Below are positions 24,001 to 27,000 of a stretch of DNA of 54,896 nucleotides, in pieces (the first letter of the stretch is position 1; every line of letters starts with the position of its first letter). A program made the position numbers. Origin of the DNA: Enterobacteria phage YYZ-2008. The stretch lies in sequence record NC_011356; one strand, written 5' to 3'.

Positions 24001-27000
24001 GTCTCTCCGTCCCAGTGGGTGGCGATAGGTGTGCTGGGGAGTCTGCTGTTTGGCCTGCTGACGTATCTGACAAACCTTTATTTCAAGATTAAAGAAGATA
24101 AGCGTAAGGCGGCGCGGGGAGAGTAAAGCGATGAAGAAAAAATACGAACTGGTTGTTAAAGGGATAAATAATTACCCGGATAAGATTACTGTTACTGTGG
24201 CACCGGAAATTGGTGGGTATCCGTCACTGTTGTTGCCAGATGTGGCGATTAGTCTTGACCGTACTGAAGGTGCCACGCTGGAGTTTTACGAAGCTGAGGC
24301 GAAAAAGCAGGCGAAGCAGTTTTTCATGGATGTTGCTGCCGGGTTATGTGAAGGGGATGGTCCGTTACCGGAAAAGCGTCCCGTAATTTTAGAGGCGCAG
24401 GATGTGTTGATAACCTACAGAGGAAAACTACCGGGAATAATTACGGGTTCTCTGAAGACTCCACCGCTGGCCTGAAGACTTAACATATCCAGGGATTTGA
24501 AATCGATAAACCCTGATAAATATCCATGAACGCAAAAATCAGATACGGCCTGTCGGCTGCCGTTCTGGCGCTGATTGGTGCAGGGGCGTCTGCGCCTGAA
24601 ATCCTCGACCAGTTTCTGGATGAAAAGGAAGGTAACCACACCACAGCATACCGTGATGGTGCGGGTATCTGGACCATCTGCCGTGGAGCCACCCGGGGGG
24701 ATGGTAAGCCTGTTATTCCTGGCATGAAGCTGTCGAAGGAAAAATGCGACCGGGTTAACGCCATTGAGCGTGATAAGGCGCTGGCATGGGTGGAGAAAAA
24801 CATCAGAGTGCCGCTGACCGAACCCCAGAAAGCGGGGATCGCGTCATTCTGTCCGTACAACATTGGCCCCGGTAAGTGTTTCCCGTCGACGTTTTACAGA
24901 CGGATTAATGCAGGAGATCGAAAAGGTGCCTGCGAAGCGATTCGCTGGTGGATTAAGGACGGTGGCAGGGACTGCCGTATTCGCTCAAATAACTGTTACG
25001 GTCAGGTATCCCGTCGTGACCAGGAGAGCGCGCTGGCGTGCTGGGGAATCGACAGATAAGCAGAAATATTTTGCTGAAAAAATGAGGTTTGCTTACATGG
25101 ACGGATAACACGAAATCCTGCAAATTGGCAAAATGTAAGTGAATAAAGTCAAAACAGTTGTTTAACACTCAGGCACCGTAATGATGCCTTTGTCATTTCT
25201 GCGCATCTCACGCGCATCTCACAACACAGAACCTTTCAGGATGACCCTTGAGGATACCGGTTTGGCTGTCGGTGCCTTTCTGTGGGCTGGATTCCTGTGA
25301 GACAAGGTTCATCACTAAAAGGAAATAACCGATGAATATGATGGCCGTGCCGTTTCACGGCAACTCTCTTTATGTAGTTAACCATAATGGCGAACCATAC
25401 GTTCCCATGAAACCTGTCGTTGCGGGGATGGGGCTGGCCTGGCAATCACAGTTGGCTAAGTTAAGACAGCGTTTTGCGTCAACTATAACGGAAATCGTTA
25501 TGGTTGCTGAGGATGGGAAACAACGCAATATGGTGTCCATGCCACTTCGAAAACTTGCCGGCTGGCTACAAACCATTAATCCCAACAAAGTAAAACCCGA
25601 AATCCGCGATAAGGTCATCCGGTATCAGGAAGAGTGCGACGATGTTCTTTACGAGTACTGGACGAAGGGTTTTGTCGTTAATCCCCGTAAAATGAGCGTG
25701 ATGGAAGAACTCAACCAGGCTTGTGCTGACATGAAACGGGATAAAAACATTGCCAGTGTGTTTGCTACCGGGCTGAATGAGTGGAAACAGGTTAAAGCCG
25801 CGCATGTATCAAAAATCCGTACGCTGGTAAATGAAGCGAATATGCTGATTGATTTTGTCCTGGCTGATACAGGCAAAGGGAAAATAACAAAGGCGGATTG
25901 ATGGGGTGGCTAATGATATCAGATAAACTCATAACGCTGGTGAAGAGCCTCTGTGTACTTGTCGGCATTTCATTTTTAGTCATGCTGGTTGCCATTTTCT
26001 TTTCCACCGCCTGGCGAGTCCTGACGTTATCGGGACTGGTGGGGTGAAAGAGAGATGAACCGTGTTCTGTGTGTGGTGATTATTGTCCTGGCGGTTGGCT
26101 ATGGTGCGCTGTGGCTGGCAACAAACCATTACCGTGACAACGCGCTCACCTACAAAGCGCAGCGCGATAAAAAAGCCAGAGAGCTGGAACAGGCGAATGC
26201 CACCATTACTGGCATGCAGGTGCGCCAGCGTGATGTTGCTGCGCTCGATGCAAAATACTCGAGGGAGTTAGCCGATGCGAGAGCTGAAAATGAAACTCTG
26301 CGTGCTGATGTTGCCGCTGGTCGTAAGCGCCTGCGGATCAACGCCACCTGCTCCGGTACCGTGCGTGAAGCCACCGGCACCTCCGGCGTGGATAATGCAA
26401 CCGGCCCCCGACTGGCAGACACCGCTGAACGGGATTATTTCATCCTCAGAGAACGGTTGATGACAATGCAGAAGCAGCTGGAAGGGGCACAGGACTATAT
26501 CCGCACTCAGTGCCTGAACTAAGTTTTGCTGATGCGCCGTATCGTCGCCGTATTCCTGCATTAACAGAGACCGCAGCCCGACAGGGAGACTCCTCTGCGA
26601 GAGTGTGCGGGGATAATCAAAAACGATACACACCGGGGTTTACCGCGTAAACGGAGCGCGGCGTTCTCCCCTCATGGTCGCCCGTCCGGTGCGATGGTGG
26701 AAGAAACTGGAATCTGTTCAATAAAAAAACTGCCGTGTTGGAGTCACAGCAGTAATGTACTGATTGGGTAGAAGATTATTATTGTTATGCTTTATTTTTA
26801 TTCTATATGGCTGATTATTTCAATTCGGAATTAATACAGCTAATGTCTGTGAGTTTTTATAAATTCAGCAATATAAAGAAATAGTTATATGAACAGCCAT
26901 CGCAGAGCATACTGTGTATCATTCTTTTTTATAGTCAACTGACGGGCATATTTTATGTCTGCTGCCAGCTCCCGGCGGCAAGATTCAATGACCCACGCAG

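Follow-up and report, generated by a model that had tools for sequence, protein, structure and literature searches.

A conserved leader RNA family upstream of the ant-like gene in the lysis cassette of Enterobacteria phage YYZ-2008

The lysis cassette of Enterobacteria phage YYZ-2008 (sequence record NC_011356; the whole stretch of 54,896 nucleotides (nt) that was analysed is called the window below) carries three additional genes among the holin, endolysin and spanin genes, in the order S - 114 amino acids (aa) - R - ant - 48 aa - Rz/Rz1. An earlier reading of the sequence (the original prediction) described the three as an unknown 114-aa protein, a truncated ant and a 48-aa membrane peptide. 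We found that the gene arrangement itself is ordinary and already annotated; the new item is an undescribed leader RNA family, one member of which lies between R and ant and extends up to the ant start codon. The leader and its parts are located as follows:

25186-25331, plus strand: conserved structured leader RNA of ~150 nt, up to the ant ATG (covariance model R1)
25201-25215, plus strand: hairpin P1, with GCGC at 25201-25204, loop ATCTCAC and GCGC at 25212-25215 (column-to-coordinate map)
25225-25231, plus strand: 5' strand of P2, CACAGAA, pairs with 25278-25284 (covariation)
25243-25250, plus strand: 5' strand of P4', GACCCTTG (family consensus GAGCCUUUG), pairs with 25303-25310 (97% paired in the family)
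25252-25276, plus strand: hairpin P3, GG/CC plus ACCGG 25256-25260 paired with TCGGT 25269-25273, loop TTTGGCTG
25278-25284, plus strand: 3' strand of P2, TTCTGTG, within the loop closed by P4' (covariation)
25303-25310, plus strand: 3' strand of P4', CAAGGTTC; alternative partner GAACC at 25229-25233 (P4alt)

A degenerate terminator tail opens the leader; hairpin P1 comes next, then a pseudoknot in which P2 crosses P4' and encloses hairpin P3, and lastly the Shine-Dalgarno (SD) sequence AAAGGAAA. Covariance model R1 matched 25186-25339 with 105.6 bits (E = 6e-21), the sole copy in the window. P1 also explains a short repeat reported earlier: the sequence gcgcatctcac does occur twice in tandem, at exactly 25201-25211 and 25212-25222, but it is not a repeat element; it is made up of the P1 stem and loop plus the next 7 nt. 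The P1 hairpins of relatives read GCGCC-ACGCCC-GGCGC, TGCAC-TTCGCA-GTGCA and similar, and no repeat is present there.

Alignment of the upstream ~170 nt across genera showed strong conservation that stops at the SD and ATG. The same element was detected by nhmmer in front of a Hamiltonella KilA-N gene and a Salmonella TerB-like gene, together with second copies, and a pattern scan of IMG/VR gave dozens more. Covariance model R1 finds 68 copies in the analysed loci, with no copy in the variant cassettes without ant. For the 28 proposed pairs, 93.3% of cells are paired compared to 35-47% when the partners are slid, 21/28 pairs show compensatory changes, and no shuffle (0/500) reached the observed level of pairing. 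P1 (helix 1) is 89% paired across the family and P3 (helix 5) 95% paired, each with compensatory changes in 4/5 pairs. P2 is not part of the covariance model and was found independently by RNAalifold. On a structure-blind MAFFT alignment (A6) P2 and P4' together are 97.3% paired (slid controls, 31-51%); taken separately, P2 is 97.5% paired with 7/7 pairs compensatory and P4' is 97.1% paired with 3/9 compensatory. One P2 pair reads CG in 30 copies, UA in 25, AU in 2 and GC in 2. Since the 3' strand of P2 lies inside the loop closed by P4', the fold is a pseudoknot, and its strands follow the a-b-a'-b' order of the H type with P2 as a and P4' as b, both helices showing covariation. When cognate duplexes were compared with non-cognate ones, the counts were 58/65 for P1, 61/65 for P2 and 64/65 for P4', as opposed to ~32/65 for control strand combinations. 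The structure is placed on the sense strand because one P4' pair is G.U in 51/65 copies.

A second, nested pairing scheme, made up of P4alt and P5, is the minimum free energy (MFE) fold of the window copy, and it is mutually exclusive with the P2/P4' pseudoknot. P4alt (GAACC:GGUUC) is 99.4% paired in the family; its pairs covary from A-U to G-C and are never A.C. In P5 the figure is 72.6%, with slippage of the register. The two helices occupy columns 124-128/218-222 and 137-142/202-207 of alignment A7, which correspond to window positions 25229-25233/25306-25310 and ~25237-25241/25293-25297, respectively; column 126 shows covariation with columns 187 and 220 alike. A hand-drawn nested model (GAACCTT:AAGGTTC plus CAGGA:TCCTG) was rejected as the best-supported structure: the covariation of P2/P4' is far stronger, and P4alt/P5 remain as conserved alternatives.

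The leader is non-coding, as all three sense frames are closed in 33/65 copies and segment lengths vary by non-multiples of 3. A 39-aa open reading frame (ORF) at 25181-25300, which matches phrog_16173 (E = 3e-21), was rejected as a gene on account of frame-breaking indels and the lack of a conserved open frame. Rfam 15 gave no match at E ≤ 1 in 23000-27500; the matches in 25100-25400 were at chance level only (E = 4-6, 14 bits), and the same was true of the copy in phage P22, with C4, sar, IsrK and ribozymes included in the search. A consensus scan detected no sigma-70 promoter-like site in 25060-25331. Control by LexA, as for the Gifsy antirepressors, was rejected because 25060-25340 has no LexA box with one mismatch or fewer. 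The Tree 2014 paper and a 2026 preprint on the small RNA (sRNA) 'Pas', both on prophage sRNAs of enterohaemorrhagic Escherichia coli, leave antirepressor, endolysin and lysis unmentioned, the locus itself not having been looked up in them.

The leader bears comparison with the c4/CI/CA-type processed antisense RNAs (P1/P7 c4-icd-ant, P4 and N15). The c4-type RNAs are structured RNAs directly 5' of an antirepressor-type gene on the same strand, with covarying internal complementary segments, and in these respects the window leader is alike. However, it has no Rfam match, C4 included, at E ≤ 10, it has no icd-like coupled ORF, it ends at the SD/ATG of the gene downstream (its cargo), and it is found in a late operon after terminators.

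Next, we examined the distribution of the leader and its cargo. It is present in 880/5,426 complete E. coli genomes at up to 10 copies per genome, in P22, ES18, HK544 and the Shiga toxin 2 (Stx2) phage 1717 (upstream of kilA), and in prophages of Salmonella, Photorhabdus, Serratia, Proteus, Providencia and Hamiltonella. The downstream genes encode P22_AR_N+ORF11CD3, KilA-N (with ORF11CD3 or P63C), Rha (with or without ORF11CD3), ANT/KilAC, Bro-N and TerB-like proteins, which reportedly belong to the 'shuffled' phage regulator set of Iyer et al. 2002. A canonical intrinsic terminator lies directly 5' of the leader in 46/65 distinct copies, and a same-strand lysis gene is found within 2.5 kb upstream in at least 41/68 copies, a lower bound given the small query set. 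One IMG/VR contig (L159) carries three leader copies, at 1343-1510, 3825-3981 and 9808-9956, in front of KilA-N+ORF11CD3, ANT/KilAC and TerB-like genes.

The P22 copy is found directly 5' of rha (orf201), a gene that lies between gene 15 (Rz) and gene 3 of the late operon, and it scores 129 bits with model R1. As in the window, it follows the lysis genes and precedes terminase; its cargo is a Rha-domain protein, whereas that of the window leader is a P22_AR_N protein. Other Rha proteins have an ORF11CD3 C-terminal domain in common with the window Ant. The P22 leader spans 2181-2346 of locus L219 (BK000583 39486-39651), and the annotated rha/orf201 start (record position 39575) falls inside it. 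The in-frame ATG at the leader end (L219 2339), 23 codons downstream, is likely the true rha start. The rha gene was described as harmful to phage growth in hosts deficient in integration host factor (IHF) and as IHF-regulated (Henthorn and Friedman, 1995, as summarised in PMC4936722). An IHF site was rejected for the window, as no IHF consensus is present anywhere in it.

To place the leader in its cassette, the genes at the locus and the shared segment 3' of R are listed below:

23920-24126, plus strand: class II (phage 21 S-type) holin, 68 aa, single ATG (PF04971, 112 bits; phrog_9876 and phrog_20 holin)
24131-24475, plus strand: YdfR-family (DUF1327) protein, 114 aa, the first additional gene, in the holin/endolysin slot (PF07041)
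24526-25059, plus strand: signal-anchor-release (SAR)-type endolysin (R21-like lysozyme), 177 aa (PF00959, 87 bits; phrog_7 endolysin)
25060-25155, plus strand: segment 3' of R common to all cassette variants (blastn blocks against L003, L004, L005 and L159 end at 25155)
25332-25901, plus strand: Ant-like protein, 189 aa, P22_AR_N + ORF11CD3, the second additional gene and the leader's cargo (PF10547, PF10549)
25901-26047, plus strand: 48-aa single-pass membrane peptide, the third additional gene (phrog_4906, E = 1.5e-30)
26055-26522, plus strand: Rz i-spanin, 155 aa (PF03245, 168 bits)
26275-26460, plus strand: Rz1 o-spanin lipoprotein, 61 aa, inside Rz in the +1 frame (PF06085, 76 bits)

The window represents a lambdoid prophage of the Stx-converting type. 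Both Q (18854-19387) and the gene for the A subunit of Stx (19887-20843) lie upstream, and the cassette is therefore assigned to the Q-dependent late operon. Every ORF in the cassette matches a curated Pfam or PHROG family far above threshold, so these are not chance ORFs; the holin, endolysin and spanin families are those of the phage 21 pinholin/SAR-endolysin/embedded-spanin type (PF04971, PF00959, PF03245, and PF06085 within Rz). The endolysin N-terminus has a Gly/Ala-rich hydrophobic segment, MNAKIRYGLSAAVLALIGAGASAPE, read directly off the translation. The original prediction of a pinholin, SAR endolysin and Rz-Rz1 set with three accessory ORFs was thus borne out, and every coordinate in it agreed with our ORF list and the raw sequence. 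The accessory ORFs are spread over two insertion slots of a phage-21-type cassette, holin/endolysin and endolysin/Rz. The minimal cassettes of phage 21 (S21-R21-Rz/Rz1) and DLP12 (essD-rrrD-rzpD) share the holin, endolysin and spanin families with the window, but both of their slots are empty.

The window holin allele differs from some of its relatives. No dual-start holin/antiholin motif is present: the sole ATG is at 23920, within the codons ATA CAT CAG ATG, whereas WGPS2 and GPEC1337 encode a 71-aa dual-start holin that begins MYQMEKITT (ATG TAC CAG ATG) in place of the MEKITT of the window. Homology to these dual-start relatives starts at 23917. A longer, antiholin-type product is impossible from the window allele because the upstream codons read ATA CAT CAG.

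Any implication that the arrangement is new or unusual did not hold, as it has been annotated since BP-4795 and is common in Stx phages. BP-4795 (AJ556162) annotates the same six genes as ORF46-51, and in Stx2a_WGPS2 (NC_049941, gp70-gp64) they are labelled by RefSeq as holin, YdfR family protein, lysozyme, anti-repressor Ant, hypothetical protein and two Rz-like spanins. The lysis regions of these two phages have the same gene order as the window and 98.0-98.2% nucleotide identity to it; they differ in the 71-aa dual-start holin and in the segment upstream of 23917. Neither record has an annotated RNA feature in the R-ant interval. Over 2.9 kb, the region shares 98.7% identity with Stx1a-converting phages; for the whole 2.6-kb block, identity to E. 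coli O157:H7 FRIK944 is 99.9%. The block is found at ≥80% coverage in 605/5,426 complete E. coli genomes and also in 42 phage records, and O157 genomes carry up to 17 related cassettes each. A 2021 survey of 279 Stx phages recorded Ant phams in 126 genomes and left their position undiscussed (PMC8136144).

Comparison of related cassettes showed that the three additional genes are independently swappable modules, each present or absent on its own. The DLP12-type cassettes (essD-rrrD-rzpD) have none of them. One variant (L003) runs from R to Rz through 200 unrelated nt with neither ant nor the peptide gene; two others (L004 and L005) have the peptide gene and no ant; and in L214 and L216 S is directly followed by R, with no ydfR, while ant and the peptide gene are both there. 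The part shared by the variant cassettes in blastn consists of R plus 96 nt, so that the variable R/Rz slot starts after 25155. Homology to the IMG/VR contig L159 continues through the R-ant spacer to 25336 (the ant ATG), after which a gene for a 231-aa ANT/KilAC-domain protein replaces ant and is followed by the peptide gene. We concluded that the second slot holds two separable modules, a leader-cargo cassette (leader plus ant) and the gene for the 48-aa membrane peptide. The additional genes do not have the form of classical morons, given the absence of a sigma-70-like site in 25060-25331 and the terminator upstream of the leader in 46/65 family contexts, and none of their proteins matches a known anti-phage defence system at E ≤ 0.01 in the PADLOC-DB hidden Markov models. 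Some E. coli prophages (L216 3299-3841, L213 1562-2086) have a Rha (+ORF11CD3) gene after Rz in addition to ant before Rz, that is, two antirepressor-like cargo genes flanking one spanin gene.

The leader accounts for both the repeat and the mosaic boundary, and it ties the window ant to P22 rha and to many KilA-N, Rha and Bro genes. A set of poorly understood antirepressor-like genes (Ant-N, KilA-N, Rha and Bro-N) is thereby linked to one control element, and the question of how such genes are expressed and yet kept harmless becomes testable through a 150-nt element in a tractable phage (P22 rha). It also becomes testable why mosaic boundaries coincide with start codons, and whether annotated gene starts are wrong, that of P22 orf201 being apparently 23 codons early.

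The cargo protein itself had been described as a truncated antirepressor with an AntA domain only. The Pfam scan at E ≤ 0.01 gave PF10547 (154.6 bits; cut-off 30.7) and PF10549 (27 bits; cut-off 25) and no match to AntA (PF08346) or P22_AR_C (PF10548). The protein matches phrog_524 'anti-repressor Ant' (E = 2e-112) and ends at profile position 210/317. Its best 120 homologues are 151-212 aa long, mostly 187-190 aa, and both domains are present in all of them; the gene is therefore complete and full length for its family, and what is missing is the P22_AR_C domain of P22 Ant. The hosts of the homologues are E. coli, Salmonella, Photorhabdus, Xenorhabdus, Serratia, Proteus, Providencia, Hamiltonella, Sodalis and Arsenophonus, and by this sequence comparison ~188 aa is the usual architecture throughout the Enterobacterales. 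The ant-like gene of Photorhabdus, Salmonella and Hamiltonella is found ~170 nt 3' of Rz/endolysin genes of unrelated families and 5' of HNH/terminase genes.

P22 Ant (immI) is a protein of ~300 aa that has its own promoter, two repressors (Arc and Mnt) and the antisense sar RNA. It shares P22_AR_N with the window protein, and both genes sit in the late region. It carries P22_AR_C in addition, whereas the window protein has no PF10548 match and no arc/mnt genes, promoter-like site or Rfam sar match nearby. The Ant of phage Phi24B, which promotes efficient induction, shares the C-terminal domain of P22 Ant (Fogg et al.; PMC3064807). The Phi24B literature was set aside as a guide to the window protein, as it concerns a different, P22_AR_C-type protein. 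The window protein is probably a late regulator that binds DNA or a repressor.

The 114-aa ORF was confirmed at 24131-24475; its ATG is 4 nt after the holin stop (24126), with GGGAGAG just 5'. The encoded protein, in which no motif had been recognised, is a clear member of the DUF1327/YdfR family and is annotated as such by RefSeq. It matches PF07041 over residues 1-112 with E = 5.4e-46 (155.2 bits; cut-off 25) and phrog_406 with E = 3.8e-64. It did not prove to be a known lysis regulator, the family having no known role in lysis. In lambdoid prophages DUF1327 genes are flanked by a class II holin gene and a lysozyme gene, an arrangement seen in the window, in the K-12-type Qin locus and in RefSeq E. 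coli annotations. The family is small and essentially restricted to Escherichia/Shigella (256 clusters of 5.8 billion); a profile search gave 91 representatives of 1.84 billion, some of which are stand-alone domains of 72-76 aa. The AlphaFold2 (AF2) model has a three-strand sheet and a long helix in residues 1-73 with a predicted local distance difference test (pLDDT) score of 75-89, and a score below 50 in residues 74-114. This tail (window 24350-24472; GLCEGD..PEKRPVILEAQ.V.ITY.GKLPG.ITGSLKTPP) is the best-conserved part of the family alignment, yet it is predicted to be disordered, and K-12 YdfR lacks it. Fold assignment gave nothing below E = 0.017 in BFVD and no sequence relatives in PDB. 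Some family members are longer isoforms of 176-183 aa that carry an additional extension.

The K-12 Qin YdfR (P76160, 103 aa; gene order essQ/essD-ydfR-rrrQ-rzpQ) has the same Pfam family and the same holin/lysozyme position as the window protein, and the two are 46% identical over residues 1-74. They differ at the C-terminus, which is a short helix in K-12 YdfR and an unrelated, conserved 40-aa tail of low predicted order in the window protein. Several phages are known to target RNase E with proteins of their own, for example T7 gp0.7, T4 Srd and phiKZ Dip. K-12 YdfR binds RNase E 1-597/598 (the N-terminal catalytic half), as shown by two-hybrid assay and Strep co-purification; the interaction surface is within residues 1-72, and RNA co-purifies (Goepel et al., 2026; PMC13232886). 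Because the 46% identity covers the mapped RNase E-binding region, we infer that the window protein may likewise bind RNase E and RNA in the cytoplasm and be co-produced with the lysis proteins. This lead provides a concrete hypothesis for a protein that most lambdoid prophages of E. coli carry in their lysis cassettes.

The small ORF proved to be hydrophobic and to overlap the ant stop codon, as had been predicted: its start shares the A of the ant TGA (TGATG), and its stop is 7 nt before Rz. It forms 53 E. coli protein clusters, down to 69% identity, in all of which the ORF is intact. Residues 3-15 are nearly invariant, the hydrophobic core varies conservatively only, and a 19-residue hydrophobic window from residue 17 has a mean Kyte-Doolittle value of 2.8. 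The ratio of non-synonymous to synonymous substitution rates (dN/dS) is 0.24-0.46 between two clades. The ORF is likely coding, though this is not proven; its product would be a translated inner-membrane protein, coupled to ant in the window, and a lysis-related membrane role would be a guess. A function as an ant-dependent partner was rejected since the peptide gene is present without ant in L004 and L005. The small ORFs 3' of ant in other genera are unrelated to it: the Salmonella ORF of 60 aa has one hydrophobic stretch, and those of Hamiltonella and Photorhabdus have none.

What, then, would the leader do? Its conserved RNA structure ends 13-20 nt before the SD, and the gene that it precedes is promoter-less and sits behind a terminator in a late operon; these features point to a cis-acting RNA element that controls regulator genes of the late operon post-transcriptionally. 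Its targets would be transcripts from antiterminated RNA polymerase. It would act on the translation of a potentially harmful regulator gene, on the stability of the mRNA, or on both, and only antiterminated late transcription would reach this gene. Since the cargo proteins belong to different families, autoregulation by the product is unlikely, and the control would instead call for a common factor of the host or phage, a ligand, or folding kinetics. That the two conserved pairing schemes cannot coexist suggests a conformational switch. More ambitiously, the leader might represent a new class of bistable regulatory RNA (a switch that senses a ligand or factor, or an element that processes itself), with one signal for all Ant/KilA-N/Rha/Bro-type genes of enterobacterial temperate phages; we regard this as speculative and unlikely. 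If true, a common post-transcriptional signal would time the making of potentially toxic regulators from the late transcript.

The explanation we favour as a whole, and consider probable with some reservation, combines the modular two-slot cassette, the structured leader as a cis-acting RNA element, the putative RNase E-binding protein, the late regulator and the membrane peptide. Several observations weigh against it. The window copy of P4' has one C.U mismatch (25245/25308), its P1 has only 4 bp, and the upstream hairpin is weak (-3.2 kcal/mol). With an MFE of -33.8 kcal/mol (z = -0.30) the window leader is no stabler than shuffled sequence, and for this reason the structural case for the leader is entirely one of covariation. 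Conservation of P4alt and P5 alongside P2 and P4' leaves two candidate active folds. The Ant-like protein has an AF2 model of pLDDT 68 with weak matches to APSES/Mbp1 DNA-binding domains (E = 0.04-0.3) and also to Ski/Dachshund and GV Orf22-N, and we know of no member of the 188-aa family with a demonstrated function, although the literature was not searched for one. The coding evidence for the 48-aa peptide is moderate, as its dN/dS is ~1 within clades and a +1 frame control gave 0.60. The RNase E link is carried over from a homologue of 46% identity with a different C-terminal tail, and over-production of K-12 YdfR altered few transcripts (PMC13232886).

Other explanations were weighed against the same evidence. 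The Ant-like protein could be a true antirepressor of CI-type repressors, its own or those of co-resident lambdoid prophages, that locks in or spreads induction, with the leader as merely a translational operator; this is a real possibility, though a doubtful one. Antirepressor-mediated cross-induction is said to have been established for the Gifsy prophages by Lemire et al. in 2011, and targets for such cross-talk exist, because O157 genomes carry up to 17 related cassettes. The N-terminal domain of P22 Ant and the phrog_524 match agree with this explanation, as does the induction promoted by Phi24B Ant; however, the latter has the P22 Ant C-terminal domain, so that its architecture differs from the window protein, which lacks P22_AR_C. 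No LexA box or arc/mnt-like partner was found nearby, and late-only expression, after the lytic decision, would leave little to do against the phage's own repressor. The control logic is not antirepressor-specific either, because the same leader precedes Rha, KilA-N, Bro-N and TerB-like genes. A different proposal, that all three additional genes are dedicated lysis-timing regulators (antiholin, endolysin or spanin modulators), is unlikely in our estimate, as cassettes that lack each of them work (none in the DLP12 type, no ant or peptide in L003, no ydfR in L214/L216), and the Ant-like gene and leader also occur beside unrelated holin/endolysin families and away from lysis genes. It draws on the position between holin and endolysin held by divergent DUF1327 genes (46% identity, K-12 Qin included), on read-through holin-DUF1327 fusion ORFs, on a window holin without a dual-start antiholin form, for which another regulator could be useful, and on a peptide that is predicted to be membrane-embedded and abuts Rz. 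Against a role of the YdfR-family protein in lysis timing, its AF2 model has no membrane-like helix and its sole experimental partner is RNase E. An envelope-integrity screen recovered ydfR (Paradis-Bleau 2014, cited in PMC13232886), but the phenotype of the deletion could be polar on rrrQ.

Two further explanations concern the leader. It might act at the DNA level or as a coding feature (a recombination linker, a protein operator or promoter, or a small ORF) and have no RNA structure. The homology to L159 that stops exactly at the ATG (25336) and coincides with the mosaic boundary, the phrog_16173 match of the 39-aa ORF, the annotation of P22 orf201 from inside the leader and the lack of a thermodynamic excess over shuffles would all fit. 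The compensatory changes in 21/28 pairs, the closed frames in 33/65 copies with indels of non-multiples of 3, and the absence of a promoter-like site do not fit, and the position that is G.U in 51/65 copies would read A.C on the other strand or in duplex recognition. Use as a recombination linker would not conflict with an RNA element; it would be a consequence of the element's conservation. Taken together, these points make a DNA-level or coding feature very improbable. Nearly as improbable is a self-cleaving or RNase-targeted processing module (an 'insulator') that would free the cargo mRNA with a defined, protected 5' end. The strand order of the leader (P2 5', P4' 5', P3 hairpin, P2 3', P4' 3', with a 7-bp P2) is the same as that of P1, P2 and P3 in ribozymes like that of hepatitis delta virus (HDV), the leader is located at gene-module boundaries within polycistronic late operons, and the same cassette carries the gene for a putative RNase E-binding protein. 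However, a search relaxed to E ≤ 10 gives no Rfam ribozyme match, a P4 hairpin is missing, and P2 begins with C-G in 53/65 copies where HDV-like ribozymes have G.U; a ribozyme is kept as a low-probability rival because the diagnostic HDV-like features and an Rfam match are absent. A cis-acting RNA element that controls the cargo gene thus remains our preferred explanation of the leader.

The neighbourhood of the cassette has further genes. Between stx and the holin gene there is a 616-aa SASA-type esterase ORF (NanS-p-like) at 21622-23472, whose translation has 1 X, indicating an ambiguous base there. A DUF3950 gene (26885-27112, minus strand) and an HNH endonuclease gene (27154-27519, plus strand) are found between Rz and the small terminase gene, and an HNH-terminase pair is likewise present 3' of the ant cassette in the Photorhabdus, Salmonella and Hamiltonella loci.

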